A DNA stretch of 64,000 nt from an uncultured Bacteroidota bacterium (GTDB taxonomy: Bacteria; Bacteroidota; Ignavibacteria; UBA10030; UBA6906): positions 128,001 through 192,000 of the forward strand of contig CAVOYH010000003.1 of the NCBI GenBank assembly GCA_963700635.1, read 5' to 3'. Shown here in pieces: positions 1-49,535 of the stretch. The stretch's first letter is position 1, and each line of letters starts with the position of its first letter. The translations under genes were made by a program, and so were the position numbers. The notes below the pieces were generated by a model, which searched no databases, was not told the origin of the DNA, and saw only the letters and a list, made by a program, of their open reading frames with translations.

Positions 1-1178
1 TTGTCATTGGAATGCCCGTGGAAGTGCACGATCAGATTCACGCCGTCCGGACCCGGCTTCAGGCCGTCGGGAACAAAAACCACGATACTACTGTCGCTGT
101 AATGCGGGAAGAGCGGATACCGCGTGCTATCGTTGCGGACCATACCCCGGGCCCGGTCGGGATGCGGAAATGGCGCCGCGGGGGAACGCCAGATTCCCCA
201 CTTGCCGCCGGGAATGACATTCCAGTCGACGTGTGCGGTGTGTGCGGTGCCGGCCGTGTATCCCGTCATCCCGGTGAAGTGGTTCCAGATGGCACGGGCG
301 ACATGCGCGGCAAGCAGAACGGCCCCGTTATTTCCCCCGTCCCCGTGATCCGGATGCTTGTCGACCAGAATCGCGACAGCCATGTCGAGTTTGTCGGAAA
401 GCACCAGCCCGGCGTCGGTCTTTGTCTCCTGCACCCCGCCGGTCTTGTGTGCCACCGCAAACGCGGCGCACTCCTGTGCGGGCAGGAAGCGCGGGATCAT
501 GGTATTGTACATCTGATCTTTCAGGATGCCGAGCATCTCCCCCGATGCCTGTTCGCTGACAAGCGATTTTCTGTACAGGGCCTCTGAAAGGGTGACCATA
601 TCTTCCGGCGTGGTTACGCCGATCCCGTAGCGTATACCTTCCGGCGTCCGCTGTTTGGTGTCCCAGGAATAGAGCCTGTTTAATAACCGTGTGTTCTTGA
701 GACCAACCGTTTTCACAAAATCATTCACATAGGCGAGACGTTCACTGTGGCTCTCCGCCAGCCGGTCAAGGACGAGATTAGTAGCCGTGTTGTCGCTCAG
801 GATGATCATCAGCCGCACAACATCCCGGAGAGAAAGAGTCGCTCCCTCATCCAGCCCCTGAAGAATCCCCGAACCGGTTTTTTTGTCTGCGGCCGTGAGT
901 CTGATGCTCATGTCGGGTTTCACGCGTCCTTCAGCGACGGCCTGGAAGTACGCCGCCATCACAGGGTATTTGATCAGACTTGCCGTGGGAAAACGTTCCT
1001 CGGCATTATACCGGACCGTTTCACCGGTCCGGAGGTTTTTCGCCATAACGCCAAGGTGGCCTCCGTACTGACCTTCGAGGCGCTGTATCTCGGCAATCAC
1101 GGATGCTGAATCCGAACCTGCTGCGGCGATTGAGGCCATAGAGACTATCGTCAAGAGGAGTACCAGGAACCGGGACAT
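1..1178 (-). CDS. Secreted class A beta-lactamase-fold serine hydrolase fused to a second C-terminal domain (probably alpha/beta-hydrolase-like); runs off the left edge
   Basis: Not in the ORF track because it has no stop in the window. Translated by hand from ATG 1178: MSRFLVLLLTIVSMASIAAAG (signal peptide)...FPTASLIK (SxxK)...LSDNTATN (SDN)...AHKTGG (KTG), then ...SIVVFVPDG...VNLIVHFHGHSND at the edge. Confidence 0.85.
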   Translation of the reverse strand, partial: MSRFLVLLLTIVSMASIAAAGSDSASVIAEIQRLEGQYGGHLGVMAKNLRTGETVRYNAEERFPTASLIKYPVMAAYFQAVAEGRVKPDMSIRLTAADKKTGSGILQGLDEGATLSLRDVVRLMIILSDNTATNLVLDRLAESHSERLAYVNDFVKTVGLKNTRLLNRLYSWDTKQRTPEGIRYGIGVTTPEDMVTLSEALYRKSLVSEQASGEMLGILKDQMYNTMIPRFLPAQECAAFAVAHKTGGVQETKTDAGLVLSDKLDMAVAILVDKHPDHGDGGNNGAVLLAAHVARAIWNHFTGMTGYTAGTAHTAHVDWNVIPGGKWGIWRSPAAPFPHPDRARGMVRNDSTRYPLFPHYSDSSIVVFVPDGLKPGPDGVNLIVHFHGHSND

Positions 1179-1248
1179 AACGAACAACTCTTTTGTTGGA
1201 GATCTTTTTACAGCCGCCACCGGCCCGTCCGGATTGCCCGCATATGTC

Positions 1249-2394
1249 TTATACCTTCAAGAACCACTTCTTCTTCCACATATACCAGACAACAACAAAC
1301 ATGGTGGTAATAAATGTGACGGCAAAGAGTAACGAGGCATTCACCGGACTCGCCAGAGGCACAAACACACTCTGATAGATCCAGACTTGTACGTTCATCT
1401 TCGTTCCATCCCCCGTGGTCCACCTGATGAGGTACATTGTCTTGGCGACCAGGCCTGAGAGCACAAACACCGTGATGGCATTCATTCCATAGATCACAAA
1501 CGGTGTGGCCCACTTCTTTACTTCTTGCACGTCGATCAGCCAGTAGAACATGGCAAGACAGACGTTTGCCCATCCTGCCATAAAAATCGCGTACGAGCTG
1601 GTCCAGAGATTCTTGTTTATCGGCAGCCACATATCGAGCACAGCGCCGAGGAGGAGCAGGACATTCCCTGCCACAAACATCCAGGCCGTTTTTTCTTCCC
1701 GCGACCGGTCCGAACGAAGCCAATGACCTGTGAGGACTCCCAAAAGTGTCGTGCCGATGGCCGGTATCGTGCTGAAGATCCCTTCCGGATCAAAGCCCGG
1801 CACCGGCGCGCCTCGCCAGGTATGCCCACCCAGCAGGTGTGAATCGATGTACCAGCAAAGATTTCCCGTCGGTTCCAGCCCCCCCGCGCCAAATCCCGGA
1901 ACGGGAATGAGCTTGATCATAAGCCAGTAGGAGACCAGAAGTCCGACGATCCAGTACACCTGGCCCTTTACATCCGTATACATAAAAATCGTGCTGGCGA
2001 TAAGGTAGCAGACGGCGATCCGCTGAAGGACGCCCGGGATTCGTATTGTCGCCCAGGAGAACTCATGCGTGGGAAGGAGTCCGAACGGAAACCCGTTGAG
2101 AAAGATTCCGAGTCCGAAGATGATTGCCGCCCGCCTGAAGACATGCAGCAGGAGTTGCGGCTTGTTGGCTCCCTCCTGAACACGGCGGGCAAACGAGAGC
2201 GTCATGGCTACCCCGACGATCCAGAGAAAGAACGGGAAGATAAAGTCTGTGAATGTCCAGCCATGCCATGCCGCATGGCGGAGCTGGGGATAGATATCGC
2301 TCCACGTGCCCGGGTTGTTTACGAGAATCATGCCGGCAATCGTTGCACCGCGGAAGGCATCAAGCGATACGAGGCGTTGCTGAGTCGAGGCCAT
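1249..2394 (-). CDS. DUF5009 / heparan-alpha-glucosaminide N-acetyltransferase (NagX/HGSNAT-like) membrane protein
   Basis: RLVSLDAFRG, LRHAAWHGWTFTDFIFPFFLWIVG, RIPGVLQRIA, FDPEG, PINKNLWTSS motifs; many TM helices; ATG 2394 follows AGGA (GTG 2412 is an alternative start). Confidence 0.9.
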   Translation of the reverse strand: MASTQQRLVSLDAFRGATIAGMILVNNPGTWSDIYPQLRHAAWHGWTFTDFIFPFFLWIVGVAMTLSFARRVQEGANKPQLLLHVFRRAAIIFGLGIFLNGFPFGLLPTHEFSWATIRIPGVLQRIAVCYLIASTIFMYTDVKGQVYWIVGLLVSYWLMIKLIPVPGFGAGGLEPTGNLCWYIDSHLLGGHTWRGAPVPGFDPEGIFSTIPAIGTTLLGVLTGHWLRSDRSREEKTAWMFVAGNVLLLLGAVLDMWLPINKNLWTSSYAIFMAGWANVCLAMFYWLIDVQEVKKWATPFVIYGMNAITVFVLSGLVAKTMYLIRWTTGDGTKMNVQVWIYQSVFVPLASPVNASLLFAVTFITTMFVVVWYMWKKKWFLKV

Positions 2395-2447
2395 TCTTTT
2401 CCTGCTGTTCACATCCGTGTATGGTGTCTTCCGGACCCGCCCGGCGC

Positions 2448-3635
2448 CTACTGAACAGGCACCACCCCGATGCCCGGACGGTCAGGCAGTGTCACTTTCC
2501 CGTCAACAATTGTCGCACCGTCAAAGATGTCGTTCTTGATGAGCACGGCGCCGTCCAGATCGGCCCACTCCGCTAGGGGTGACATCTGGGCGGCGGCTGA
2601 GATGGCACATGACGTTTCGGTCATACACCCCAGCATCACTTTCATGTCCAGCGCGCGGGCGAGGGTAATCATCTTGTACGCTTCACGCATCCCGGTGCAT
2701 TTCATCAGCTTGATGTTGATACCGTCATACACTCCCCATGCCTTCTTCACATCCGGCAGGCGTTGTACGCTTTCGTCACCGATAATCGGCAGGGGGCTCT
2801 TCTCGCGCAGCCACACGATGTCGTCGATCTGTTCTTTTGGCATCGGTTGCTCGACAAACAGAATATTTTTCTTTGCAAGCCATTCGATCATCTGTAACGC
2901 ATCCGTCTTGTCCTTCCATCCCTGGTTCACATCCACCGAGATCGGCGTGTCGGTAACTTCCCGGATGGTTTCGATCATCATCTTGTCCGTATCGCGTCCG
3001 AGTTTGACCTTGAGCACCTTGTAGATGCTCGCTTCTTCGGTCTTCTGGCGCACCACCTCTTTGGTATCAATCCCGATGGTAAACGAAGTCACCGGGGTCT
3101 TTGTTGGATCGAGCCCCCAGATGCGGTACCATGGCTGACCGATCTTCTTCCCCACCCAATCGTGGAGAGCGATATCAACGGCCGCTTTTGCCGCGGGATT
3201 TCCGGGGAGGATGAGGTCGATTGACCTCAGCACATCTTCGAGCTGGAAGGGGTCGGGAAATGCCGACAGGTCGACCATCTCAAGGAACGCGCGTGCCGAC
3301 GCCTGGCTCTCCCCGAGATAAGGGGGCATGGACGCCTCTCCATACCCCACAATCCCGTCCTTTGCCACCTGAACCATCATCGCCGGTGTGGTCGTGCGGG
3401 AACTGGTGGCGATGGTGAAGGTATGTTTGAGCTCGAGGGTGTAGGGATAAAATTCCAGTTTCATGTCATTAACCGAAAGAGTGAATGGAGATGAACCGGC
3501 ACGGGAACCGAACGTCACGGCAACACCGGCAAGAGAAAGAAATCGGAGCACGTCCCGGCGGGTCGTGCCTCCGGCCGGGACAGGGGATACGCCGCTCAGG
3601 CCCGGGAGGAAACGCTGAAGAAGTGAGTTACTCAT
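2448..3635 (-). CDS. Dipeptide epimerase (L-Ala-D/L-Glu epimerase, enolase superfamily) with a Tat-like signal
   Basis: YGEAS, AAVDIALHD, LKVKLG (KxK), DVNQGW, EQP, DES, NIKLMK, GCMTE, DLDG; N-terminus TRRDVLRFL followed by a hydrophobic stretch. Confidence 0.92.
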   Translation of the reverse strand: MSNSLLQRFLPGLSGVSPVPAGGTTRRDVLRFLSLAGVAVTFGSRAGSSPFTLSVNDMKLEFYPYTLELKHTFTIATSSRTTTPAMMVQVAKDGIVGYGEASMPPYLGESQASARAFLEMVDLSAFPDPFQLEDVLRSIDLILPGNPAAKAAVDIALHDWVGKKIGQPWYRIWGLDPTKTPVTSFTIGIDTKEVVRQKTEEASIYKVLKVKLGRDTDKMMIETIREVTDTPISVDVNQGWKDKTDALQMIEWLAKKNILFVEQPMPKEQIDDIVWLREKSPLPIIGDESVQRLPDVKKAWGVYDGINIKLMKCTGMREAYKMITLARALDMKVMLGCMTETSCAISAAAQMSPLAEWADLDGAVLIKNDIFDGATIVDGKVTLPDRPGIGVVPVQ

Positions 3636-3661: not shown

Positions 3662-4846
3662 TTAAGGTCGCCGCACTCCCACCGCCTCTCCCAGTCCGAT
3701 AATTCTTCTGGCCCGGAGGAATGTCTGTTCTCTGAACTGGCTGTAGTCGGTGTCGGCGGAAGCCAGGCTGTTGATGCGGACATCGGAGGACGCATGGATA
3801 AACCGTTTGCCTCCGAGCGAGATGGCGACATGCGTTACGCGTTCCTTCCGCTCGGGCGTGGCCCGGAAACCGAAGTACAGGAGGTCACCCGGACTGAGGT
3901 TGATCCCCCCGGTTGTGTCAACGAGTTCGCCCACGTTCACCTGCTGGCTTGCGTCGCGGGGGAGGAGGATACCATTGAGAAAAAACACGGTTTTCGTGAA
4001 CCCCGAACAATCCATCCCCTTGGCGGATGTCCCGCCCCACAGGTATGGAATCCCCATAAAACGTTTAGCCGTTGCGAGAATCGTTTCCGGTGTTTCGTGG
4101 GCCTGTTCCAGCCAATCGCCATAACGTTGCCCCATCTCCTGGGGAAGAAACGCAACACGCCCGTCGGGGTACTCCACGGTATAGTACCCGGCGGCCTGCT
4201 CCTTCAGCGCAAGGATGCTCCCGGCCACCACATCACTGACAACCTGCGATGAACGGTCTCCGGATTGTCTGGTGAACGCGATCTCGGTGGTGACAAGCAG
4301 CTTCGGTTTTGCGGACCAGACAGCGGATTGATCCGGATCCATCATCACCACGTGGTCATCGGTCCAGCCAAGATAGTCATCCGGGGTCTGGACGTAATAC
4401 CATCCGCGTTCCTTCTTAAGAATCCTGAGCGGGGTCCCGAGAAGTGCCTGTGTGCCCATCTCGGCGGCATGGTCCGGCCTCGTACGAATATTGGCGACGC
4501 TGATGCTGACGATACCGGTTGTTTTGTTTCCGAGTGCAGGGTGCGGGAGTACAAGAATGCTGTCTTCGATGGTCACTGCGGCGTGGTCTCGCACGTATGT
4601 GAGGAGTTCTTTTTTGAGTTCGGAAGAGTGAATTTCCCCCTTGAGGACGACGGTTGAGCCATGATGTTCCTGGCGCACATCAAACACCACGGTACGCCGA
4701 TCAGGTGCAAATTTCAACCGGGCCTCCTTGAGCACATCATCCATTATACTGCTCCCCTGCTCCTGAGACGAGGCTGAAGTCGGCCAGACTATGATCGCAA
4801 GAAATAGGCCACAGAGTGGCACTCTGATACATCGAAGTGCATGCAT
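3662..4846 (-). CDS. NlpC/P60 (C40) peptidase with SH3b domains; YkfC-like gamma-D-glutamyl-diamino acid endopeptidase
   Basis: Signal peptide; EMGTQALLGTP...VQTPDDYLGW (SH3b); PYLWGGTS.GMDCSG (catalytic Cys), LPRDASQQ, THVAISLG..RFIHAS; lies next to the epimerase as in ykfB-ykfC. Confidence 0.92.
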   Translation of the reverse strand: MHALRCIRVPLCGLFLAIIVWPTSASSQEQGSSIMDDVLKEARLKFAPDRRTVVFDVRQEHHGSTVVLKGEIHSSELKKELLTYVRDHAAVTIEDSILVLPHPALGNKTTGIVSISVANIRTRPDHAAEMGTQALLGTPLRILKKERGWYYVQTPDDYLGWTDDHVVMMDPDQSAVWSAKPKLLVTTEIAFTRQSGDRSSQVVSDVVAGSILALKEQAAGYYTVEYPDGRVAFLPQEMGQRYGDWLEQAHETPETILATAKRFMGIPYLWGGTSAKGMDCSGFTKTVFFLNGILLPRDASQQVNVGELVDTTGGINLSPGDLLYFGFRATPERKERVTHVAISLGGKRFIHASSDVRINSLASADTDYSQFREQTFLRARRIIGLGEAVGVRRP

Positions 4847-4917: not shown

Positions 4918-7299
4918 TTATCGGAGCAACAACATCCGCTTTGTGTCCACAAACCCGCCACTCTGCATTCTGTAGAAGTACGTCCCGCTTGCCGCACGGG
5001 ACGCGTCCCAGGCGACCGTGTATGTTCCGGCGGGCATTTCGCTGTCCACGAGAGTCGTCTCCTCTCTGCCAAGCAGATCAAACACCGTGATCAGCACCCG
5101 GCCGGCATTGGGGACGGAAAAACGGATGCGCGTGGTCGGATTAAACGGATTCGGAAAGTTCTGACTCAATCCGTACGACGACGGGAGTTCGGGTTCCGCC
5201 GCGATGTCCGACACCTGTACGGTCCGGAAGCGGAACGCAGGAGACCAGGGACTTGTACCGAGTCCGCTCGTAGCACTGACCCGCCAGTTGTAAATACGAT
5301 TCAACTGCAATCCGGTCACGTCGAGTGTGGTGTCCGCTATATTTGATGAATCCAGGAGGAGCACAGAAAAATCGGCCACAATCGAAAGCTGGAACCGGTA
5401 TGACGACGCCGTGGCCGACATGTTCCAGGAAAATGTCAGCGCGAGCGGGACGTCCAGCAGCAGGTTTGCTGGTGAAACCGGGACCGGGCTGGCCGGGAAG
5501 CCGGTCGTAAACGAATGTACGGAGGAATACGAGCCTGTGCCCGCAGCGTTGGCGGCACGCACGCGCCAGTAGTAGGTTGTATGCCCATCCAGTCCGGTTA
5601 TGGCGTACGATGTATCCGTGACGGTGGAATCATCGATCGCCACGCCGGACACAAACGTCGAATCAACGGCAACCTGCAGCCGATACCCGGATGAGGGTGA
5701 TGTGGGCGACCAGGTGAAACGTGCCACATCTGCTATACCGGTACTGCCGTTTGCGGGATACACGGCAAGCGGCGGCGTCGGGGGCGCGACAAGAAGCACG
5801 TTGCTTGTATCACCCTCGTTATGATTACGGTCCAGCGCGGTGACGACGTAGTAGTAGGGACCGCCGGGAGGAGGCGCAGGCGGGATACACAGGCGTTCCC
5901 CCACCACGGAGATGATGTTGGCCGGATTGTCGAGCTCAGCCGCAGCAGGCGGGTGGTCAAAACGATACACCACATAACGGTTTGCACTATCTCCATCGGC
6001 CGCAACCAGAGGAAGGTCCCATTGTATCGCGGCCGGACCGGTCCCGCCGATCCGGGCATACCGGATGGCGCGGGGGGGATTCGGCGCCACGACGCCCTTC
6101 CAGGGCATCACGGGACTCAGGGCGATCGAGGTATAATACCTGTCTCTCAGGCTGTCAGCGAAGCCGAGAGAGTTGCTCACCAGCTGTGCCGCGCGGAAAT
6201 AGACCTCTCCATGCACTTTGGCGTTCGCGCGCGCAAGTTTTAGCTGGTTCGGGAGTTCCGGGTTCGTGTAGGTGGTCCCGAAGATGTGTCCGGGATAATA
6301 ATGCCGTGAGTGCACAGCAATAGAATCCGCCCACCACGGCATAAGCTTACTGTAGTCCTGGCTGCCTCCGATTTTCCAGTACAACTGCGGCGTGAAGTAG
6401 TCCACGGATCCATCCCGCAACCATGCAATCGCGTCGCCATAGATCGTGCCGTAGGCGTCAAGTCCGGTGATGCCGGGCGGTACGCCGTTTTTCCAGATGC
6501 CGAACGGACTCATACCAAACCGTACATACGGTTTGATGACATTGATGCTGTCCATGATCTGTTTCATCAGGAGGTTCACATTGTCGCGGCGCCAGTCGCC
6601 GATGTCAGAGAACCCGCGGTTGTATGTGGAGAAGGTGGCCGCATCCTGGTTTGTGATTGCCTGGGGCGGGTACGGATAGAAGTAGTCGTCCGCATGGACA
6701 CCGTCGACGTCGTATCTCCGCACGATATCGGCCACCACACGCGCCACGTGATTCCGCACATCCGGAATGCCGGGGTTCAGGATGTTGAGTGGACCCGTGC
6801 TGCCCGATGCTGCAAACGTGAGAATCCAATCGGGATGCTGATTGACCACATGCGTGGAGGCAAGTGTATAATTGCCAACTAGCCGTTCGGCCCGGTAGGG
6901 ATTAAACCAGGCGTGAAGTTCCATCCCCCGCTTGTGGGCCTCTTCGACGGCAAATTCCAGCGGATCCCAGAATGGGACGGGGGCCGCGCCCTGCGACCCG
7001 GTGAGCCACCTGGACCATGGTTCAAGACTCGAATTGTAGAGCGCATCACACTCCGGGCGGATCTGAAATATGATGGCGTTGAAGCCCATCCCCTTCAGCG
7101 ACTCAATAATGCCCACGAGCTGGTCCCGCTGAGCCTGGGGAGGAAGCGAAGGTGTCGGCCAGTCCAGGTTGACGACCGTCGCAACCCACGCCGCCCGGAA
7201 TTCTCGTTTGGGAGGCGGCTGAGCGGTCAGGGACACAACGAGGGAAAAAAGGAGTACCACAACGGGCAACATTCTCAGAGAGAGGGTCATGATGGGCAT
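4918..7299 (-). CDS. Glycosyl hydrolase-like family 10 (YddW/DigH-type) protein with FN3 domains and T9SS C-terminal domain
   Basis: REFRAAWVATV.NLDWP, FQIRP..DALY.S, ELHAWFNPYR, YDVDGVHADDYFYPY, DYFTPQLYW; FN3 repeats (TYYWRVRA, IYNWRVSA); LSQNFPNPFNP...KRMLLLR CTD. Confidence 0.9.
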   Translation of the reverse strand: MPIMTLSLRMLPVVVLLFSLVVSLTAQPPPKREFRAAWVATVVNLDWPTPSLPPQAQRDQLVGIIESLKGMGFNAIIFQIRPECDALYNSSLEPWSRWLTGSQGAAPVPFWDPLEFAVEEAHKRGMELHAWFNPYRAERLVGNYTLASTHVVNQHPDWILTFAASGSTGPLNILNPGIPDVRNHVARVVADIVRRYDVDGVHADDYFYPYPPQAITNQDAATFSTYNRGFSDIGDWRRDNVNLLMKQIMDSINVIKPYVRFGMSPFGIWKNGVPPGITGLDAYGTIYGDAIAWLRDGSVDYFTPQLYWKIGGSQDYSKLMPWWADSIAVHSRHYYPGHIFGTTYTNPELPNQLKLARANAKVHGEVYFRAAQLVSNSLGFADSLRDRYYTSIALSPVMPWKGVVAPNPPRAIRYARIGGTGPAAIQWDLPLVAADGDSANRYVVYRFDHPPAAAELDNPANIISVVGERLCIPPAPPPGGPYYYVVTALDRNHNEGDTSNVLLVAPPTPPLAVYPANGSTGIADVARFTWSPTSPSSGYRLQVAVDSTFVSGVAIDDSTVTDTSYAITGLDGHTTYYWRVRAANAAGTGSYSSVHSFTTGFPASPVPVSPANLLLDVPLALTFSWNMSATASSYRFQLSIVADFSVLLLDSSNIADTTLDVTGLQLNRIYNWRVSATSGLGTSPWSPAFRFRTVQVSDIAAEPELPSSYGLSQNFPNPFNPTTRIRFSVPNAGRVLITVFDLLGREETTLVDSEMPAGTYTVAWDASRAASGTYFYRMQSGGFVDTKRMLLLR

Positions 7300-8856: not shown

Positions 8857-8926
8857 GATGCACTCCTTAAGTAGTGAGATGGTGGTGTGATTGATGAATC
8901 GTATCATGGCATGGTGCAAGCCATCC

Positions 8927-10166: not shown

Positions 10167-10214
10167 GCGTACGATCCTATCCATCGTCTCGTTTCTATCG
10201 CGCGTTCAGTACCG

Positions 10215-20127: not shown

Positions 20128-20189
20128 AAGCCGCTCCTGTCCGATGTGCTCTCTCCTGCGCACGATTCTTCGCGCAGTCATTGCTGATC

Positions 20190-22706: not shown

Positions 22707-22865
22707 GGGTGACAGGATCGTGCTTTCTTTTAAGGAGACGAATGCCGGGGAAAATGTCAACAGAGCACCCCACTCCGGCGACCTTCTTTCAGAAGAACGG
22801 CTGCAGAAGGACCTAACCGGGAGCGCCTGACTCCCGGGTGGTAATACTGAAAGAAAGAGGTCCGC

Positions 22866-22902: not shown

Positions 22903-22997
22903 AATATACGGGCGGCGTTCACGTTGGGCGGAACCCGGAACGTACCGCCGCCGGTCTGGGTCCGGTGTATCGGACCACCGGCGGACCCGGAATATCC

Positions 22998-39500: not shown

Positions 39501-40075
39501 CATCCGCCGGATTTGAGGCAATACGCGGCTGATCCGGGTCAGCGTATCCCGGTAATGGTTGCCACTGCCAGAGAGTATCGCCGGTAGGATTCACTTCCCG
39601 CAGGGCGGGGTAGTCCCAGAGTGCATCGGAGATGATGTGGAGGCGGCGGGCAGGGTCGCCGGCAGAGGGAACGGATGCCCCCACAATCGGACAGAACTGA
39701 AATGCGTAGTCCAGATTCCGCCAGACGAGGTTATTCACCGACCGGAGTGCATCGTAGCCGGGCGCAATGCCTCCGTAATTGTAGAGTTCAACCGCAATTT
39801 TGTTCCCGTTCATAAAAAAAGACTTGCGGTCCTTCTGTGCCGTTACGGCGGTGGTTTTTGCCGGTGGTCGCTGATCGGGCTTCATCTGCGTGTCCGGGAC
39901 TCCGGCAACGGGCGTCGTGGACTGTGAAGATGCCGTCGTTCTCATGTACTCCTTCACCGCCCGCTGGGCGCGCTCAGAATTGCTCGTCCGGCGTCTCGGC
40001 GCTTGCGCCGCCGATTACGACACCCAGTGCCACAGCCAGCAACCAATTAAACCGGGTACCTGCTGAAGTTTTCAT
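36508..40075 (-). CDS. Large secreted protein, paralog of 27598-31095 (module 3 cargo); +1 frameshift just after the signal peptide (~39976)
   Basis: ATG 40075 after AAGGA gives MKTSAGTRFNWLLAVALGVVIGGASA-ETPDEQF; TTC [T] GAG joins it to track ORF 36508-39957. Motifs GCKFLESP, DDDGDGLIDE, DESDQIGLTSF, FEGYVVYRS, IYVVPNPY...KFALIK. Confidence 0.85.
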
Positions 40076-43105: not shown

Positions 43106-44998
43106 TTACCGGACCAACATCATTTTTTGTGACTTGCTGAAGTTGCCGTGCTTCAGAGTGTACACGTAGCTGCCGCTGGCGACACCCTGCCCGGCGTTGT
43201 TCGTGCCGTCCCATTCCACCTGGTAGGCCCCCTTCGCCGTCTCCTGGCTGGCGATCAGGGTCTTTACTTCACGGCCGACCATGTCGTAGACAATCAGAGA
43301 GATGGTGTTGTCCGCCGGCAGACTAAACCGGATGGAGGTCGAGGGGTTAAACGGGTTGGGATAATTCTGTTCCAGAACATACTGTTCCGGGGTCACGATC
43401 GTCAAATCGATCGGGGCAAACGTGGTTCCGGTCCACTCAAGCATCCGCAGGTTCGTCGCGACCACATTAACCTGCTTCCATGTGCTGTCCGTCCGGAACT
43501 GGTCAGGAGTCATCGTCGTGTCCCAGATGCGGCGGGTATATGACACAGAATCCGCCACACTCTGGTAGGACAGCATCACTTCGACCTTGCCATTGCCGTT
43601 GACATCCGCACCTGCGAACATCTTCGAAACAAACGGGCTCTCAGCGTAACTCGTATCCTTCACGCCAAGCGAATCGCGGTACTCCACCTCATGGAAGAAC
43701 GCCGGTTCGCCCGGGTAGTAGATCGTGCTGGTGTAGCTCGAGGGGCTGGTCAGACTGCCCGTGCCTTTGTACTCTAGCGCGATCACATTGTAGTCTGCCG
43801 ATCCGCCGATCAGGATTTCTTCACGGCCGTTCCCGTTGAAGTCGTATGCGCCGATCCCCCAGTGAGATCCTGCCGTTTTGCCGGCAAGGGTCCAGAGGTT
43901 TTCGCCGATGATGCCAAACTGGGTGCTGTCTTTCCAGACATAGACGCCCGTGTCGCCCTTGGCAATAGTGTTGAGCACCACCTTATAGTTGTAGTCGCCT
44001 GCGCCGATGTAGAGGATGCCTGCAATCTCCTTGGTTCCGTCACCGTTCACATCGACCGGCTGGACACCCATGTACGCCACCGCATCTTCATTAACCGACT
44101 TCATATACTCAAAGTAGAAGTTTTTCGCCTTGGGATTGGTCAGGGTGTCGACACCCGGTGTCGGATAACGATAGGAATCTGGGCCCTTGGGGTCAATGGA
44201 CCAGAAACCGTAATAATTCCAGTAGTGGTTGACGATTTCCTTCTGGCCGTCGCCGTCGATGTCGGCAGGAATGGACTGCCACCAGGATCCGCCTGAAAAC
44301 CGGTTCTCAGGATGTACTGAAGGATCTCCACCTTCAAGGTCCCAGGATCCGAAACCACCGATGTCGCCTATGACTCCGATGATATAGACCTTGTTGTCCT
44401 GATTGGCCATGATCAGCTCATCCCGGCCATCACCGTCAACGTCTTCAACCGTACCGGTTTCACGGTCCATACGTATTGCGGATGTTGCGCCAAGAAGGGC
44501 GGTGAACTGGGTCGCAGGAAGTTCAAGATCTGCAAACCCGGGCAGGGCGCCATATCCGTTGTCCGTGCCGTTGTATTCAAAAACGACCACCTTGCCGGTG
44601 TAGCGTGGGCCTACCGGGAAAATAATTTCACGATTTCCGTCGCCATCCAGATCGCCATCTCGCACCCAGCGGGGAGTGGAATTGGGATTGGACTGGTACA
44701 TATTGGGGGATGACCAGACGAGCTCCAGGATGTCCGGGCTTTTGAACTCGAACACGTGCACGCGTCCGCCGTTGGCATAGTCGGTTGAAACGATCTCCGG
44801 CTTGCCGTCTTTGTCCATGTCCGTCGTTACCCACGCACTCCGGATACCCTGGTCGTTCCGGTACGGCTGGGTGCTATCGGGTCCGGTCCAGTTGGCCTTG
44901 GTCTGATAGGAGTTGTGCGTGGAGACGCTGGTTAACTGCGCGAACGCAGTGCCGGCCGCCAGCACAAGAACGATCAACATCGTAATGGTTCTGCTCAT
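43106..44998 (-). CDS. T9SS cargo with FG-GAP/VCBS-type Ca-binding repeats (integrin-alpha-like propeller) and FlgD-like CTD
   Basis: Seven DxDxDGxxE-type loops (DMDKDGKPE, DLDGDGNRE, DVDGDGRDE, DIDGDGQKE, DVNGDGTKE, DFNGNGREE, DVNGNGKVE); LEQNYPNPFNP...WDGTN...QKMMLVR. Confidence 0.88.
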   Translation of the reverse strand: MSRTITMLIVLVLAAGTAFAQLTSVSTHNSYQTKANWTGPDSTQPYRNDQGIRSAWVTTDMDKDGKPEIVSTDYANGGRVHVFEFKSPDILELVWSSPNMYQSNPNSTPRWVRDGDLDGDGNREIIFPVGPRYTGKVVVFEYNGTDNGYGALPGFADLELPATQFTALLGATSAIRMDRETGTVEDVDGDGRDELIMANQDNKVYIIGVIGDIGGFGSWDLEGGDPSVHPENRFSGGSWWQSIPADIDGDGQKEIVNHYWNYYGFWSIDPKGPDSYRYPTPGVDTLTNPKAKNFYFEYMKSVNEDAVAYMGVQPVDVNGDGTKEIAGILYIGAGDYNYKVVLNTIAKGDTGVYVWKDSTQFGIIGENLWTLAGKTAGSHWGIGAYDFNGNGREEILIGGSADYNVIALEYKGTGSLTSPSSYTSTIYYPGEPAFFHEVEYRDSLGVKDTSYAESPFVSKMFAGADVNGNGKVEVMLSYQSVADSVSYTRRIWDTTMTPDQFRTDSTWKQVNVVATNLRMLEWTGTTFAPIDLTIVTPEQYVLEQNYPNPFNPSTSIRFSLPADNTISLIVYDMVGREVKTLIASQETAKGAYQVEWDGTNNAGQGVASGSYVYTLKHGNFSKSQKMMLVR

Positions 44999-45284: not shown

Positions 45285-45312
45285 TTGCCTTTTTGTCCTC
45301 GAATGTTAACTT
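45285..45312 (+). promoter_or_regulatory. Putative promoter (extended -10) for the 45362-48031 gene
   Basis: TTGCCT-N16-TAACTT, with TGT directly before the -10. Confidence 0.5.
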
Positions 45313-45361
45313 GGATATGTTGTACTCTCACCCCTTTTCACCTACTAAACAGGAGGCTTCC

Positions 45362-48031
45362 ATGAGGGTTCTCTATTCCCTTTGCCTGGCAACCCTGGCA
45401 CTCGGCTTGTTACTTGCCCCGGGGAACCAGGCGTCGGCAGACGTTTTTGCACACAACATCCGGATCACGCAACCCGATTCCGATGCACCGTTCGACGCAA
45501 AGTTTAACGACGGATCGGGCGCTGCAATCCGGTTTGTTCTTTCCGACCGCGCGGATTCAGTCGTCATCATGATCAACTCCCCGACGGAGACCGTCCGCGT
45601 CCTCCGGGCAACCGATCTGGTTTCCGGGGATACCGTGGTGGTATGGGATGGCAATAATACATCCGGAACCCCCGTTCCATCCGGAGACTATAGCCTGAAG
45701 TTCACCGCATACGACAAAGGTTATTCTCTTTACACAGAAATCTTCTACGATCAACCGGCTATTTTCACCCGTGGGGTTACCACGATCCGGAATACCGATC
45801 TCAAGAATTTTGGATTTATCTACGCCGCAGACAACGGCGGCTATGCCACCGGCGTCGCACGCCATTCAGCCGATGTACGGCAGTGGGGAAACAGCAAGGG
45901 CGTTGCCAAATTAGATAATACCGGCGCCGTTGTTGGACCCGCCAACCTTCGCTATTCATCCGAAGCTGATGAGGCCGGGTATGTGTACCTCATCGGACGG
46001 GATAAGAAGGAAATTTACCGGTATCACACCGATACGATGTTTGTGGCACTGTTTGATTCCGGTGGTTATACCACCAATCTGGAAGGGCTTGCTGTTGCGG
46101 GCACCGGGAGCGGACGCGTTATAGCAGTTGCCGGACAGAGCAAAGTGTATTTTATGCCCGTCGGCGATAACCCTGGCTGGTTCCAGCCGAAGACCATTGC
46201 CGTGGACGGTGATACCTCAGTGATCTACTGGGATGCAGCGTTTGGACAGGATTCGGTCCTTTATACCACGTTTTACGGTGCGAAAGACGATATCCGGCCC
46301 GGCGTCGCAAAGTTTGATTTCACCGGATGGGACGGGACCACCCCGAAAAAACTCGCCGATGCGGTCTGGACCGCAACACTTGACAGCGGCCGCGCCAACA
46401 CGATGGCACTCGATTTCGGCCGCGACACCACCGACGTTGACGACGTGCTATACTTCACGATCGCACGCAGGAAATCCGCCGATGTCAACGTCCGGCAGAA
46501 CATCTACCTCCTCAAGAACCTGAACGCTGTCACGCCGATGCTGGACACGGCGTACATCGACAGGGGCAACAACATGACCCAATCCCGGTCCGATATTGCC
46601 GTGGATGCGGTGGGCAACATCGTCTATTTTGAAAACTCAAACGAAGAGACCGTCCTCATCTCTCCTCCAACCGGACCCAACAGCTTCATGACGCCGGCCC
46701 AGGTGAAGGTGAAGGTCATCATCTCCGAAACGATCGCGGCCGCGCGGCGTAGCACGGTAGATTACTACAAACCGGACCGGTTAAACGATACCGTAACGGT
46801 CATAGGCACAGTCAACTCCGTCAATCCTGTTGCCTCTGCGAATCGTTTCTCCTACTTCATCCAGGATGAAACAGCCGGCATCAACATCACCAAGGGCAGC
46901 GTCACAGGTGGTGGTCCCGTCTACAAGATCGGTGACCGGCTTGTTGCAAAAGGCGTGATCGGTCAGTTCCGCGGAACAACACAAATGAACATTGTCTCGC
47001 TGACAGACGTTGTGCTTCTCGACTCAGGCAACGCCGTGACACCATTCGTGCTTACAATGGATCAGTTCCTTACGGATCCTGAAACCTATGAAAGCCGGTT
47101 CATCAAGTTTAATGGTGTTGCAAAGACCGCGGCTTCGCCGGCCTGGCCCGGAGCCGGAGCCGATGCCAACATGATGATCTGGGACGGATATCGTGAGCTC
47201 ATCCTCCGCCTTGATCAAGACACCGACATTGATGGAACCACGGAACCCGTGTATCCCATGAATGTCCAGGGTGTCGCGACACAGTACACGTCGTTATCCA
47301 CCGTGTTTAATGACGGTTACCAGATTACGCCGAACATGTACACGGATATGACCGGCGGCGTCAATTCGCCACCGAACCGGTACTTTGCACTGCTGAGCCC
47401 TTCCCATACGTCCCGTATCGTGCTGAACGACACGGCACAGACGGTGACATTCCGGTGGGCCGCAGCGGTGGATCTGAACGGCGACAATGTGATTTACCAG
47501 TGGGTCCCCATGGGTTTCTCCGCAGTTCCCACGGGAAATGCAGCGCGTGATACGTTCCTCGTCCGGACCGGCAAACAGCTGCTGACCTATCTGGCCACCT
47601 CGGACTCTGTCGTCCTCAAGTGGCTTGTCGCAGCAAAAGATCCGACCAACGCGGTTGTGTACAGCAGGGATACTCTCTCTGTGACGCTGGTACGCGGAAC
47701 GATCACGGGCGTGGACGGACTCTATGAGATTCCGACACGGTTCTCCCTTGATCAGAACTATCCGAACCCCTTCAATCCGTCCACCACAATCCGCTTCGGG
47801 CTTCCGTCGGCGGCCTCTGTACGCCTTACGGTGTACGATGCCCTCGGACGGGAAATTGCCACACTGCTCAATGAAGAGCGTGCGGCGGGATACATCACCC
47901 TGACGTGGGATGGCGTGAATGGTTCGGGAACACGGGTAGCAAGCGGCATATACTTCTACCGGATCCAGGCGCAGCCTGTGGGCGGTGGTGTGCCGTTCGT
48001 CGAATTAAAGAAGATGATACTCGTGAAGTAA
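45362..48031 (+). CDS. T9SS cargo: N-terminal FlgD-Ig-like, beta-propeller, OB-fold-like domains, CTD
   Basis: AGGAGG upstream of ATG 45362; signal ASA-D; VVWDGNNTSG..VPSGDY (FlgD-like); TVTVIGTV...YFIQDETAGI...IGDRLVAKG (OB-like); LDQNYPNPFNP...KKMILVK. Confidence 0.82.
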   Translation: MRVLYSLCLATLALGLLLAPGNQASADVFAHNIRITQPDSDAPFDAKFNDGSGAAIRFVLSDRADSVVIMINSPTETVRVLRATDLVSGDTVVVWDGNNTSGTPVPSGDYSLKFTAYDKGYSLYTEIFYDQPAIFTRGVTTIRNTDLKNFGFIYAADNGGYATGVARHSADVRQWGNSKGVAKLDNTGAVVGPANLRYSSEADEAGYVYLIGRDKKEIYRYHTDTMFVALFDSGGYTTNLEGLAVAGTGSGRVIAVAGQSKVYFMPVGDNPGWFQPKTIAVDGDTSVIYWDAAFGQDSVLYTTFYGAKDDIRPGVAKFDFTGWDGTTPKKLADAVWTATLDSGRANTMALDFGRDTTDVDDVLYFTIARRKSADVNVRQNIYLLKNLNAVTPMLDTAYIDRGNNMTQSRSDIAVDAVGNIVYFENSNEETVLISPPTGPNSFMTPAQVKVKVIISETIAAARRSTVDYYKPDRLNDTVTVIGTVNSVNPVASANRFSYFIQDETAGINITKGSVTGGGPVYKIGDRLVAKGVIGQFRGTTQMNIVSLTDVVLLDSGNAVTPFVLTMDQFLTDPETYESRFIKFNGVAKTAASPAWPGAGADANMMIWDGYRELILRLDQDTDIDGTTEPVYPMNVQGVATQYTSLSTVFNDGYQITPNMYTDMTGGVNSPPNRYFALLSPSHTSRIVLNDTAQTVTFRWAAAVDLNGDNVIYQWVPMGFSAVPTGNAARDTFLVRTGKQLLTYLATSDSVVLKWLVAAKDPTNAVVYSRDTLSVTLVRGTITGVDGLYEIPTRFSLDQNYPNPFNPSTTIRFGLPSAASVRLTVYDALGREIATLLNEERAAGYITLTWDGVNGSGTRVASGIYFYRIQAQPVGGGVPFVELKKMILVK

Positions 48032-48056
48032 TGGCAGGCTGATTCTACTCTTGCAG

Positions 48057-48092
48057 GTAGGGACGCCCGGTCGGGCGTCCCTACTTTTTTTT
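48057..48092 (+). terminator. Intrinsic terminator overlapping the stop codon of the convergent symporter gene
   Basis: GTAGGGACGCCC-GGTC-GGGCGTCCCTAC-TTTTTTTT. Confidence 0.88.
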
Positions 48093-49535
48093 CACCGCTC
48101 CCAACATACCCATTCCCCATCCGATCGTCACTGCGGCAAGAACCCCGATCATCGTGTACCACGTCCAGGCAACGATGTTAAGTGAGATGACCGTCACCAT
48201 GACAAGGATACCCCCGACAAACCCGGCGAGCGCATCTTCCTGTGTCGGGCGCTTGAAGAGCACTCCGAGCAGGAATGTCCCCAGCAATCCGCCATAGGTG
48301 AAGGATGCGATGCTGAGGGCGAGCTCCACCACGGCCTGGCTTGTATTCATGAAGAAGAGTGCGGAGCAGACCAGAAGCACGGCCCAGAATGCGGTCACAA
48401 GGCGGGAGAGGCGGAGTTCTTTCTCGGGCGTGAATCGGGCCCCGGCACGCGGCTTGTAGAGATCCATCACCGTTGATGATGCCATCGAGCTCATGGAACC
48501 GGCCAGCGTCGATAACGCAGCTGCAAAGAGCCCGGCAATGATAAATCCTGACACGCCCGGCGGAAGTCCTTCGATAATGTACCGTGGAAAGATCTCGTCA
48601 GCTCTGCGGAGCCCCAGTTCTGCCAATCCCGCCCCGCCATAGTGGCCATACAGCAACACTCCCACCACCAGGAAGAGCGCAAACTGAACAATGATAATCA
48701 AACCACTTCCGATGAGTGCCTTCCGTCCGGCACGGACAGATTTTGTCGCGAGGATCCGCTGGACAATAAGCTGGTCGGTTCCGTGTGATGCCATGGAAAG
48801 GAATCCCCCGCCAAGGATCCCGGCAAAAAGCGTGTAGGGTGTCTTCCAGAAATCCGGACCAAATCCAAGATTGAAGACGTCGAATTTCCCGGCCTCCTGA
48901 GCCAGATGGGTGATCCCCGTCCACCCACCGTCATACGAAGTAATCAGCACAACCGCCGAGAGAATTGCCCCCCCCAGGTAGATGAACATCTGGATGGCAT
49001 CCACCCAGATGACACCCCGGACTCCGCCCATATACGTGTAGCCGAGCGCCACGACTGCAAGGATGATAATTGCCACGGGGTAGTCGATGCCGAGGGCAAA
49101 TTTCAGGGGGATGGCCGTGGCAAAGAGCCGCACACCGTCAGCGGCGATCCGAGTGAATAAAAACACAATCGAGGCAAAACTCCGGGTCTTTGATCCGAAC
49201 CGTCGTTCCAGAAACGCATACGCCGTGGAGAGTTCGCCCGTGGCGTACGCGGGAAGAAAAAGATAACTCACCGCAACCCGCCCGAGCAGATATCCCAGGG
49301 TTACCTGCAGAAAATTCAGGTTCGCCAGGTAGGCAAGTCCGGGTATGCTGATGAAGGTGAGGGTGCTTGTCTCTGCCGCAACAATCGAAAAGCAGACAAC
49401 CCACCAGGGAATGGTATCCCTGCCCAGGAAATAATCATTGGCGGATCGTTGTTTGCCACCCCGCCAGACGCCGAAGAGTGCGATCGCGGCAAGGTAGACG
49501 AGAACAATACCATAGTCGAGTGGTGTGAAGCCCAT
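48081..49535 (-). CDS. Sodium:solute symporter (SLC5/SSS family)
   Basis: DYFLG...PWWVVCFSIVAAETSTLTFISIPG, LERRFG, GGVRGVIWVD, SHGTDQLIVQR, AAALSTL; about 13 TM helices. Confidence 0.93.
   Translation of the reverse strand: MGFTPLDYGIVLVYLAAIALFGVWRGGKQRSANDYFLGRDTIPWWVVCFSIVAAETSTLTFISIPGLAYLANLNFLQVTLGYLLGRVAVSYLFLPAYATGELSTAYAFLERRFGSKTRSFASIVFLFTRIAADGVRLFATAIPLKFALGIDYPVAIIILAVVALGYTYMGGVRGVIWVDAIQMFIYLGGAILSAVVLITSYDGGWTGITHLAQEAGKFDVFNLGFGPDFWKTPYTLFAGILGGGFLSMASHGTDQLIVQRILATKSVRAGRKALIGSGLIIIVQFALFLVVGVLLYGHYGGAGLAELGLRRADEIFPRYIIEGLPPGVSGFIIAGLFAAALSTLAGSMSSMASSTVMDLYKPRAGARFTPEKELRLSRLVTAFWAVLLVCSALFFMNTSQAVVELALSIASFTYGGLLGTFLLGVLFKRPTQEDALAGFVGGILVMVTVISLNIVAWTWYTMIGVLAAVTIGWGMGMLGAVKKK

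Follow-up and report, generated by a model that had tools for sequence, protein, structure and literature searches.

Organization of the locus

The locus occupies about 50 kb of the window, the 64,000-nucleotide stretch of an uncultured Ignavibacteria-like bacterium that we analysed. It is confirmed as real: Pfam searches of 34 open reading frames (ORFs) and NCBIfam searches of 33 placed at the coordinates given here every feature named in an earlier, sequence-only reading of this DNA. That reading had described three uptake triads. Three exist (10215-16624, 24697-32251 and 35377-42911), each made up of a TonB-dependent receptor (TBDR), a large unannotated protein (BIG) whose CTD forms a subtype of its own, and a PorV/PorQ-family paralogue dedicated to the triad; they are without SusD, a family matched by no ORF. 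Orthologues are named by survey locus (L001, L004 and L005).

10215..11249, minus: PorV/PorQ-family barrel, triad 1 (NF033709 195.9 bits against a cut-off of 90; equivalog cut-offs for PorV and PorQ not reached)
11268..13364, minus: BIG1, ~700 aa, BIG-type CTD (no Pfam family; orthologues in L001 and L004)
13420..16624, minus: TBDR1 (CarboxypepD_reg, Plug and barrel), in two frames with the switch at 15563-15567
24697..27567, plus: TBDR2 (TonB_dep_Rec_b-barrel 102.7 bits; Plug 43.7)
27598..31095, plus: BIG2, 1165-aa all-beta multidomain protein, BIG-type CTD (no Pfam family; model pLDDT 83; Foldseek)
31196..32251, plus: PorV/PorQ-family barrel, triad 2 (NF033709 211.2 bits)
35377..36411, minus: PorV/PorQ-family barrel, triad 3 (NF033709 225.2 bits)
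36508..40070, minus: BIG3, 38% identical to BIG2 (signal peptide in another frame upstream of 39957)
40149..42911, minus: TBDR3, 40% identical to TBDR2 (Pfam; pairwise identity)

TBDR1 and BIG3 are apparently frameshifted; in both L001 and L004 the orthologue of TBDR1 is encoded by a single ORF. BIG1 and BIG2 have only a 121-column C-terminal domain in common (prob 99.6, E 6.6e-25), and the BIG-type CTD is related to the type A CTDs of the window (prob 79 and 93). Models of the triad-2 barrel with the BIG2 tail scored 0.91, 0.91 and 0.90, compared to 0.00 for the best of 3 controls, with at least 70% of contacts agreeing between runs and a partner pLDDT of 75-78; 58 of 80 solved complexes attain the docking mark, as do 2 of 110 mismatched pairs. 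The barrel is thus predicted to bind BIG2 residues 1040-1165. Since a PorV-substrate complex has already been solved (PMC10994853), this docking pass may reflect likeness only. We infer that the BIG proteins lie at the cell surface.

Secreted and periplasmic enzymes

The cut-off for the T9SS type A sorting domain (TIGR04183, NCBIfam) was reached by 8 of 33 proteins, so that the CTDs earlier assigned to GHL10, GH18 and M23 stand, while the carriers number eight rather than three.

about 4918..7299, minus: GHL10 with fn3 and T9SS CTD, candidate glycan-strand cleaver (GHL10 225.9 bits, Pfam)
7495..8856, minus: secreted protein, function not assigned, T9SS CTD by profile (conserved-block member; orthologues in L001, L004 and L005)
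8904..10184, minus: IPT/TIG-domain lipoprotein (TIG 42.2 bits; lipobox LLSSC; conserved-block member; orthologues in L001 and L004)
16823..17827, minus: exported protein, 334 aa (signal peptide)
17824..20181, minus: M23 metallopeptidase with domain X and T9SS CTD (M23 profile; motifs)
about 20190..22922, minus: GH18 (YaaH/YdhD-like) with domain X and T9SS CTD (GH18 79.4 bits)
22998..24485, minus: secreted protein with T9SS CTD (weak NHL match)
32421..34679, minus: secreted protein with T9SS CTD (~280 aa in common with the C-terminal part of BIG2/3)
43106..44998, minus: FG-GAP repeat protein with T9SS CTD (Pfam, NCBIfam)
45293..48031, plus: FlgD_ig-domain protein with T9SS CTD (Pfam, NCBIfam)

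Although the GHL10 family assignment held, the closest solved relative of this domain is not DigH, as had been suggested, but Cwp19 (5oq2, 288.3 bits), described as a lytic transglycosylase (PMC6016235). The 120 homologues listed retain the ~790-aa architecture at identities of at least 50%, and homologues carry the name 'lipoprotein YddW' in one source. The family is not peptidoglycan-specific, because Deinococcus DogH, a member, is reported as active on starch (PMC9967864). The M23 domain scored 26.1 bits, below the Pfam cut-off of 28.7, and bears the motifs HxxxD (residue 77) and HxH (residue 159). YdhD was the top solved match of GH18 (55.7 bits), with YdhD/SleL among its nearest relatives, and the close clade of this GH18 has NFE in place of DFE. 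Fold and sequence searches ranked chitinases and SleL/YdhD alike, and by this ranking the GH18 substrate may be either peptidoglycan or chitin. The 7495..8856 product may be a beta-propeller (atlas leads all at or below 0.86), and the 16823..17827 product matched no family, with all PDB matches at E >0.001.

The remaining genes encode stem-peptide enzymes, an acetyltransferase and a symporter.

about 3..1220, minus: class-A beta-lactamase-fold serine enzyme, Sec signal, C-terminal extension off the left edge (Beta-lactamase2 189.9 bits; Peptidase_S11 35.5 bits)
1249..2412, minus: NagX/HGSNAT-like inner-membrane acetyltransferase (NF046061 213 bits)
2448..3635, minus: dipeptide (L-Ala-D/L-Glu type) epimerase, Tat-like signal (MR_MLE_C/N)
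3662..4846, minus: YkfC-type NlpC/P60 and SH3b gamma-D-Glu-diamino-acid endopeptidase, Sec signal (NLPC_P60, SH3_16)
34724..35335, minus: D-Ala-D-Ala dipeptidase (DdpX/VanX type), Sec signal, in the triad-3 gene string (Peptidase_M15 112.5 bits)
48081..49535, minus: sodium:solute symporter, SSS (SSF 140.1 bits)

The first of these is a candidate PBP-A-like DD-peptidase: its best solved matches are 4ewf and Tll2115 (83 bits), it carries SxxK (81), SDN (142) and KTG (259), and a regex search of residues 1-330 found no ExxxN. The YkfC-type peptidase matches 3npf (254.8 bits) and 3pvq, 'dipeptidyl-peptidase VI' (246), while the epimerase, whose N-terminus reads TRRDVLRFL, matches 3iji (487.9 bits) and the L-Ala-D/L-Glu epimerase 1jpd (124.9). 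DdpX scored 141.4 bits against a PRK10178 cut-off of 176. The NagX-like protein falls below the equivalog cut-off of 480, yet aligns with positions 2-369 of the 369-position profile; its orthologues (43-44% identical) adjoin GHL10 in L004, L007 and L052, and those in L004 and L052 match Pfam HGSNAT_cat. The symporter, a candidate inner-membrane importer, has 5nv9 as its nearest solved relative (195.5 bits). Within the window, Pfam and NCBIfam found no amidase, NagZ, NamZ, MurQ, AnmK or sugar kinase, in agreement with the earlier reading as regards amidase, NagZ, AnmK and MurQ.

The top place of chitinases in the GH18 fold search, together with a NagX name that derives from GlcNAc/chitin pathways, would suit a locus for chitin or another GlcNAc polymer, in which GH18 and NagX would stand for the classical chitin pathway, with the peptide enzymes as bystanders. 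We give this explanation hardly any credence: the 34 ORFs contain neither GH20, GH19 or LPMO nor any chitin-binding module, stem peptides with D-amino acids are the specific targets of four enzymes, Cwp19 is the closest solved relative of GHL10, syntenic loci hold NamZ and a MurNAc-L-Ala amidase, and one source gives the name 'spore germination protein YaaH' to 21 of the 120 GH18 homologues listed. Eight of the about 25 genes in the locus belong to cell-wall families, which by our estimate is far above an assumed genome-wide share of ~1%.

Conservation around GHL10

At least 80 GHL10 loci, those listed, were surveyed with twelve peptidoglycan-linked queries. The order TBDR-BIG1-PorV-TIG-unknown-GHL10 is kept in L001 (Ignavibacteriota) and in L004 (Balneolota), and in part also in L005 (Fidelibacterota), three phyla in all. 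The locus is more than chance, given that other phyla show the identical order of genes. Beside the block, L004, a Balneola MAG, encodes GH3, NamZ, NagX and Amidase_3 (a MurNAc-L-Ala amidase); the NagZ-type GH3, NamZ and amidase are functions missing from the window. L001 additionally encodes Amidase_3, a member of the BadF-type sugar kinase family and a pair of two-component proteins, and in L003 (Algivirga) giant T9SS proteins fuse GHL10 to Amidase_3 and a PF00144 beta-lactamase. Other GHL10 neighbours are DdpX in L007 and NagX in L052. Among the loci listed, the block is absent from 3 of 6 full-length CTD-type GHL10 loci with flanks (L006, L026 and L059). Of the 80 loci listed, 60 lacked all of the twelve peptidoglycan-linked queries: 55 of these held GHL10 only, L056, L054, L061 and L066 held the BadF-type kinase family alone, and L064 only the non-catalytic part of the GH18 query.

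Bacteroidia carry a GHL10-YkfC-epimerase trio without CTD in housekeeping contexts, and the trio alone therefore does not prove a foreign substrate. GHL10 adjoins NlpC/P60 and an epimerase in L053 and an epimerase in L045. These Bacteroidia loci, in which a CTD-less GHL10 of ~510 aa occurs with NlpC/P60 and epimerase amid housekeeping genes, and the periplasmic or membrane location of five enzymes here, would fit enzymes that remodel or recycle the sacculus of the cell itself, a task known elsewhere from DigH, MepS-type and DdpX-type enzymes. However, the sorting domains of GHL10, GH18 and M23 score above the curated cut-off and direct these enzymes beyond the outer membrane, the presence of three TonB-dependent receptors implies that material is imported from outside, and the CTD-bearing and CTD-less forms of GHL10 have different architectures. 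We consider own-wall turnover very unlikely.

The claim of a single ~50-kb locus fared unevenly: block 4918-16624 is conserved across the three phyla, while no relatives of BIG2, unk820, NHL548, FG-GAP or FlgD912 occur in or near the 80 GHL10 loci listed. DdpX is the sole link to peptidoglycan for triads 2 and 3 and the FG-GAP, FlgD_ig and NHL proteins. The locus might be a mosaic of neighbouring operons, in which only string 3-16624, and perhaps the GH18/M23 string, handles peptidoglycan. Triads 2 and 3, together with the FG-GAP, FlgD_ig and NHL proteins as their cargo, would then serve to import other polymers (e.g. proteins, glycoproteins) and be adjacent since such modules are dense in this genome. 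Conservation of block 1 only, gene strings on different strands, and a BIG2 family that is general because it is large (4400 representatives, E up to 0.001) fit this account. In contrast, DdpX lies in the triad-3 string itself, between PorV3 and a CTD protein, and the GH18 and M23 genes sit right between triads 1 and 2. A mosaic is, on balance, unlikely, though it deserves real weight.

Known systems and the proposed route

E. coli DigH/YddW is a periplasmic division enzyme. GHL10 shares a catalytic family with it and with Clostridioides difficile Cwp19 (288 bits), but here fn3 and a T9SS sorting domain follow GHL10 within a receptor operon, which sets it apart from both the S-layer autolysin and the periplasmic division enzyme. 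The YkfC-type peptidase and epimerase adjoin, as they do in L053, and very strongly resemble (255 and 488 bits) the DPP VI and epimerase of 3pvq/3npf and 3iji, which we take to be of Bacteroides origin and encoded by adjacent genes; here, in contrast, a receptor triad and a secreted GHL10 precede the pair, and a Tat-like leader is present on the epimerase. PorZ-PorQ and PorU-PorV are T9SS cargo-shuttle pairs. PorV is described with type A CTDs, and PorP/SprF-like shuttles as encoded beside type B cargo (PMC12618676). The window likewise sets the gene for a CTD-bearing protein beside a barrel predicted to bind its CTD, but the barrel is PorV/PorQ rather than PorP/SprF, the CTD is related to type A yet distinct from it, and every such pair comes with a TonB-dependent receptor.

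As in the SusC/SusD loci of Bacteroidota, a SusC-like receptor (CarboxypepD_reg, Plug and barrel) is encoded with surface proteins and with secreted or periplasmic hydrolases for one polymer. In contrast to those loci, SusD is lacking, the receptors, at 60-77 bits, fall below the SusC/RagA cut-off of 368, the genes next to them encode a large protein with a CTD and a PorV/PorQ-like barrel, and the window holds no hybrid two-component or ECF regulator. The salvage clusters of Tannerella forsythia (namZ1-murTKQ-ampG; bioRxiv 10.1101/2021.12.02.470905) and Bacillus subtilis (amiE-nagZ-namZ-murQRP; PMC7670621) also treat cell wall, exogenous or released, as a resource, and NamZ, GH3 and Amidase_3 adjoin the conserved block in L004. 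However, NamZ, NagZ, AmiE, MurQ, MurK and AmpG are absent from the window, and the available portions of these reports describe the clusters without TonB-dependent receptors or T9SS-secreted hydrolases.

The signal peptides agree with the compartments assigned in the following route. Enzymes with type A sorting domains would reach the surface or medium via the type IX system, where the Cwp19-like GHL10, and perhaps GH18, would cut glycan strands and M23 cross-links, outside the cell. Fragments would then cross the outer membrane through the SusC-like TonB-dependent receptors, each encoded with a large all-beta BIG protein whose special CTD would dock on its dedicated PorV/PorQ-like barrel, BIG and barrel forming a surface capture device in SusD's place. 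In the periplasm, the PBP-A-like DD-peptidase and DdpX would remove and split D-Ala-D-Ala, the YkfC-type peptidase would cut the gamma-D-Glu-diamino acid bond, and the Tat-exported epimerase would convert L-Ala-D-Glu to L-Ala-L-Glu. NagX may re-acetylate glucosamine residues, and the SiaT-like sodium symporter may import an acidic N-acetyl sugar.

The core of the sequence-only reading, in which secreted peptidoglycan hydrolases are followed by TonB-dependent import, periplasmic trimming and inner-membrane uptake, drew support from the nearest solved relatives, the signal peptides and the Balneola MAG neighbours, and sequence comparison appears to support peptidoglycan as the substrate. Taken together, these findings make it reasonably probable that this Ignavibacteria-like bacterium of the FCB group uses the cluster to catabolise exogenous peptidoglycan. 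Its outer-membrane uptake module has not previously been described, and the cluster as a whole looks built for digesting foreign bacterial cell wall outside the cell and importing the pieces.

Organization of the locus

Scans of the 64 kb window, which has a G+C content of 56%, returned no tRNA and no Rfam match. Annotation with Pfam (34 ORFs) and NCBIfam (33 ORFs) placed 25 genes in four strings between position 1 and ~49.6 kb. These domain calls and the four strings bore out the contents observed in the sequence-only reading, namely three uptake triads lying among glycosidases, peptidases and a symporter.

Gene strings of the locus (TBDR, TonB-dependent receptor; BIG, large unannotated protein with a BIG-type CTD; PorV, PorV/PorQ-family barrel; CTD, T9SS C-terminal sorting domain)
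16624 to 3, minus strand: string A, in order TBDR1, BIG1, PorV1, TIG lipoprotein, CTD protein without assigned family, GHL10-fn3-CTD, NlpC/P60-SH3b, MR/MLE epimerase, NagX-like, class-A beta-lactamase-fold protein (crosses the left edge)
~24485 to 16823, minus strand: string B, NHL-like CTD protein, GH18-CTD, M23-CTD, exported protein without family
24697-32251, plus strand: string C, TBDR2, BIG2, PorV2
44998 to 32421, minus strand: string D, FG-GAP CTD protein, TBDR3, BIG3, PorV3, D-Ala-D-Ala dipeptidase, CTD protein without family
Beyond string D: FlgD_ig CTD protein (plus strand), then sodium:solute symporter (minus strand)

Eight proteins carried a T9SS type A sorting domain (TIGR04183, 29.7-47.9 bits vs a cut-off of 23). 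NamZ, NagZ, amidase, MurQ and MurK/AnmK were absent from the window ORFs searched with Pfam (34) and NCBIfam (33), and the earlier statement that amidase, NagZ, AnmK and MurQ are not seen here held in these searches. The window's locus yielded no regulator. Several products remained without assignment: a PDB sequence search gave 0 matches for that of 32421-34679, matches only at E > 0.001 for that of 16823-17827, and FlgD_ig only for the FlgD_ig protein (45293-48031). Atlas look-alikes of the 7495-8856 product were propeller-type families at scores up to 0.86, which are weak leads.

Three reading frames appeared to be interrupted. TBDR1 switches frame at 15563-15567, by tblastn through a single-base indel; its orthologues in a Melioribacter MAG (L001) and a Balneola MAG (L004) are single uninterrupted ORFs, and the switch is either an assembly error or the mark of a pseudogene. 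A signal-peptide-like start of BIG3 (MKTS...GGASA, ~39960-40070) is out of frame with the main ORF and runs into a stop; the five BIG2 homologues that were inspected each begin with a signal peptide. The third apparent frameshift lies outside the locus, in an alpha-2-macroglobulin gene (51476-56972, 1696-aa ORF): the part encoding the lipoprotein N-terminus (ORF 56394-56972) is out of frame with the rest. This gene adjoins that of PBP1C (56975-59419), a known pairing for bacterial alpha-2-macroglobulin. Three apparent frameshifts within 64 kb of a 1.92-Mb contig suggest assembly indels, while the three genes may instead be pseudogenes. Also right of the locus are a C1 peptidase of the papain family whose N-terminus is rich in Arg (59295-60083) and a DUF4953 Met-zincin (62706-63989), neither with a visible tie to it.

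Predicted cell-wall enzymes

The GHL10 domain scored 225.9 bits vs a curated Pfam cut-off of 27.9, and its nearest solved structure in a PDB sequence search was Cwp19 (288.3 bits over residues 31-399), which its authors demonstrated to be a peptidoglycan lytic transglycosylase (PMC6016235). Starch activity has been reported for another GHL10 member, DogH (PMC9967864). For the window's enzyme, genomic context supports peptidoglycan as the putative substrate. The GHL10-fn3-CTD architecture (~790 aa) was kept at 50-82% identity among 120 listed homologues, those with names belonging to Ignavibacteria, KSB1 and 'Bacteroidota' MAGs; the window's copy sits on the 1.92-Mb contig. A GHL10-fn3-CTD gene was also seen on a 1988-bp contig (L049) binned as Methanobacterium, an assignment that is probably a binning artefact.

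The GH18 domain (79.4 bits in Pfam) reads DGININFE at the position of the family motif DxxDxDxE. Its homologues follow DG(V/I)N(I/V)(D/N)FE, with NFE in the close clade (Asp of the preceding residue replaced by Asn), and the motif Glu was kept in all 30 listed variants, representing 91 of 120 aligned homologues. GH85 enzymes operate with Asn-x-Glu. By sequence, YdhD ranked first at 55.7 bits vs 45.3 for a chitinase, SleL and YaaH also matched, and 21 of the 120 listed homologues bear the name 'spore germination protein YaaH' in one source. With the predicted model (pLDDT 83), Foldseek ranked ChiW, other chitinases and SleL alike, so the putative substrate may be chitin or peptidoglycan. A chitin locus was weighed as a rival explanation of the whole and set aside, as was recycling of the cell's own wall. 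The M23 domain was weak (26.1 bits, below the Pfam cut-off of 28.7; 20 bits to 5kqb), and both zinc motifs were present, HxxxD at residue 77 and HxH at 159.

Residues 486-822 of the GH18 protein and 354-700 of the M23 protein were 36% identical, defining a common region of ~340 aa that we call domain X.

Occurrences of domain X
18127-19120 (window): M23 protein
20472-21465 (window): GH18 protein
8711-9712 and 14445-15662 (locus L003, Algivirga): two giant T9SS proteins

The Algivirga giants also carry Amidase_3 or beta-lactamase along with GHL10. The GH18 model predicts for domain X a beta-sandwich and, after it, an alpha/beta domain; Arg, Ser-Glu, Asp and Glu positions are invariant. Pfam at E up to 1 assigned it no family, returning chance-level matches only, as it did for BIG1 and the products of 32421-34679 and 16823-17827. 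An Atlas look-alike of GH18 residues 486-825, fn3 at 0.91, is a weak lead; in Foldseek on the whole GH18 model, GH18 matches dominated.

The remaining enzymes point to the stem peptide. The NlpC/P60 protein scored 255 and 246 bits to two 'dipeptidyl-peptidase VI' structures and combines, as YkfC-type enzymes do, an N-terminal SH3b domain with a Cys-bearing GMDCSGF, the Cys presumably being the nucleophile; it is a predicted YkfC-type gamma-D-Glu-diamino acid endopeptidase. The epimerase has the MR/MLE fold; 3iji scored 488 bits, and the structures named as dipeptide or L-Ala-D/L-Glu epimerases scored 125-142 bits, from 1jpd at the low end to 3jva at the high end. It fell below the NCBIfam equivalog cut-offs (141 vs 343; 207 vs 400 for DgcA) and is predicted to be an L-Ala-D/L-Glu (dipeptide) epimerase. 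The DdpX/VanX-type D-Ala-D-Ala dipeptidase reached 112.5 bits for Peptidase_M15 vs a cut-off of 27, and 141.4 bits for the DdpX equivalog PRK10178, under the cut-off of 176.

The beta-lactamase-fold protein at the left edge (3-1178) has 4ewf and Tll2115, the latter of which we take to be PBP-A, as its nearest solved structures. SxxK, SDN and KTG are present and ExxxN was not found by a simple pattern search, a combination consistent with a PBP-A-like DD-peptidase, for which the protein is a candidate. More than 100 aa lie past its beta-lactamase domain (window 3-330), reaching ...NLIVHFHGHSND at the window edge; this extension suggests a second domain clipped by the edge. At their N-termini, the beta-lactamase-fold protein, the NlpC/P60 protein and DdpX have Sec signals and the epimerase has a Tat-like TRRDVLRFL, so stem-peptide trimming would be periplasmic. 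The symporter's nearest solved structure was 5nv9 (195 bits), which we take to be the sialic-acid symporter SiaT, and we infer that it may import MurNAc or a like sugar. MurT of T. forsythia was rejected as its counterpart, the passages describing it as a novel family leaving SSS membership unstated (PMC7670621).

The uptake triads

Triads 2 and 3 are paralogous (40% identity for the TBDRs, 38% for the BIG proteins and 51% for the PorV-like barrels), and triad 1 is distant from both. As in SusC/SusD polysaccharide utilization loci, degradative enzymes for one polymer are co-located with receptors. In contrast to such loci, the window lacks a SusD lipoprotein, with no match to SusD_RagB or SusD-like families in 34 ORFs at E up to 0.001 (Pfam), and the TBDRs scored 60.3, 77.1 and 72.7 bits for the SusC/RagA subfamily TIGR04056, below its cut-off of 368. 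A SusD-type locus was set aside for want of SusD. An N-terminal CarboxypepD_reg plus Plug architecture is present in the TBDRs.

PorV1-3 fit the family model NF033709 (196-225 bits vs a cut-off of 90) and fell below the equivalogs for PorV (73-81 vs 250) and PorQ (86-93 vs 220). Assignment as core T9SS PorV/PorQ was rejected on these cut-offs; judged by profile scores, they are paralogues of PorV/PorQ, not core components. PorV2-like proteins shared 64-89% identity over 120 listed.

BIG2 had no Pfam family. At E up to 0.001, 4400 of the 50%-identity representatives were relatives of it, 496 of these at E up to 1e-30. Its model is all-beta and multidomain (pLDDT 83, pTM 0.76). Foldseek placed PorZ first at E 8.5e-6 but with TM of at most 0.13, and the N-terminal part resembled GH94-type sandwiches (prob 1.0, TM ~0.2), too weakly to name a function. 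The BIG2 alignment (27598-31095) contains Asp-rich DxDxDG-like runs (consensus DGIDNDxDGxIDE ... DEDGDW), which to our eye recall calcium-binding repeats. Profile comparison showed that BIG1 and BIG2 have only their last 121 columns in common (prob 99.6, E 6.6e-25). This BIG-type CTD, marked by PNP(Y/F), IRIYT..GEL and a terminal (K/R), is related less closely to the window's type A CTDs (prob 79 and 93), and the BIG1 tail matched the PorZ C-terminus in NCBIfam (E 3.3e-4).

When PorV2 was modelled in complex with residues 1040-1165 of BIG2, the scores were 0.91, 0.91 and 0.90, vs 0.00 for the best of three controls. Among solved complexes 58 of 80 attained the mark applied, and among mismatched pairs 2 of 110, a calibration that is rough here with custom alignments. 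At least 70% of contacts agreed between runs, and partner pLDDT was 75-78. The prediction supports binding of the BIG2 CTD by PorV2. The structure of a T9SS translocon carrier protein with bound substrate has been determined (PMC10994853), so this result may reflect likeness to that complex. Precedent for a dedicated shuttle beside its cargo comes from PorP/SprF-like proteins and substrates with type B CTDs, in an account stating that all type A CTDs are recognised by PorV (PMC12618676). The shuttle gene stands beside that of its cargo there as PorV does beside BIG here, where the binding is predicted.

We infer that each triad would pair a receptor with a capture protein that the T9SS exports and that is held on a barrel of its own, and would in this way replace SusD. 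Once exported, the large surface protein would remain attached to the PorV/PorQ-like barrel by a CTD subtype dedicated to this. The bodies of BIG1 and of BIG2 and BIG3 are unrelated but their CTD is common, so this CTD with its barrel would amount to a transferable anchor, one that would turn T9SS cargo into receptor-associated capture proteins. It is possible, and we propose it tentatively, that SusD-less FCB bacteria (Ignavibacteriota, Balneolota, Fidelibacterota and relatives) have an undescribed module of SusC-like TBDR, docked T9SS protein and PorV/PorQ-like barrel, here dedicated to foreign peptidoglycan.

Conservation and interpretation of the locus

Species-representative genomes were searched with GHL10 alignment A1, and 80 of at least 598 stretches were kept, the window's genome not being among those listed; 33 window proteins were compared with the 80 loci by tblastn, and ORFs of 11 loci by Pfam. 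The order TBDR-BIG1-PorV-TIG-unknown CTD-GHL10 was identical in the Balneola MAG. This block was kept in the Melioribacter MAG with GHL10 shifted to the front, and in part in a Fidelibacterota MAG (L005), the three belonging to three NCBI phyla. Conservation in relatives, the check proposed in the sequence-only reading, was partial: the block stood in these genomes, and it was absent at three of six full-length CTD-type GHL10 loci with flanks (L006, L026, L059).

Beyond the block, the Balneola locus encodes a metallophosphoesterase, a NAGPA-type phosphodiester glycosidase, NagX, GH3, NamZ and AMIN-Amidase_3, and the Melioribacter locus Amidase_3, a second GHL10, a BadF-type sugar kinase family protein and a sensor kinase/LuxR pair. 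Through NamZ, GH3 and Amidase_3 in the former and Amidase_3 and the BadF-type kinase in the latter, functions missing from the window are thus tied to the block elsewhere. The Melioribacter pair, a Reg_prop/Y_Y_Y histidine kinase and a LuxR-type response regulator (5990-9797), lies directly upstream of the GHL10-TBDR block. Algivirga pacifica encodes its two ~1900-aa T9SS proteins as an Amidase_3-GHL10 fusion and a PF00144 beta-lactamase-GHL10 fusion. At Bacteroidia-type loci, the neighbours of a CTD-less GHL10 (~510 aa) are NlpC/P60 and the epimerase in L053 and, in L045, only the epimerase; GHL10 adjoins DdpX in L007 and NagX in L052.

Within 10 kb of GHL10 in the 80 listed loci, descriptive counts with no matched background were 10 for Amidase_3, 3 each for NamZ and NagX, 2 each for GH3 and epimerase, and 1 each for NlpC/P60 and DdpX. 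The M23 query was near GHL10 in one of the 80 (Algivirga), through its non-catalytic part, the beta-lactamase-fold protein was found by tblastn in none, and in 55 GHL10 was the sole window query matched. These figures, like the loci that lack the block, weigh against the peptidoglycan reading.

The locus is real and its core is coherent. The main rival, which we consider rather unlikely, is a mosaic whose cell-wall-related part comprises strings A and B only; string C holds a triad alone, and string D includes the D-Ala-D-Ala dipeptidase. Capture and catabolism of foreign peptidoglycan is the best explanation of the locus, and a fairly probable one. If true, this would be a peptidoglycan utilisation locus, perhaps with an undescribed outer-membrane uptake module. 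The literature searched, mostly without subscription journals and supplementary files, yielded no account of a peptidoglycan locus linked to a receptor, none of TBDR-PorV-like triads, and no paper with the phrase 'peptidoglycan utilization locus'.

In sediments and deep water, a large reserve of organic carbon and nitrogen is bound up in peptidoglycan. In the reports at hand, use of this polymer has been inferred from single enzyme families, e.g. GH23 and M23 (PMC11044484; PMC13601601), and a defined gene block would serve as a genomic marker of cell-wall scavengers. The locus would also supply testable enzymes in the secreted GHL10, the GH18 (putatively acting on chitin or peptidoglycan) and domain X, and its triads would offer an answer to how SusD-less FCB bacteria couple surface capture to TonB-dependent import.
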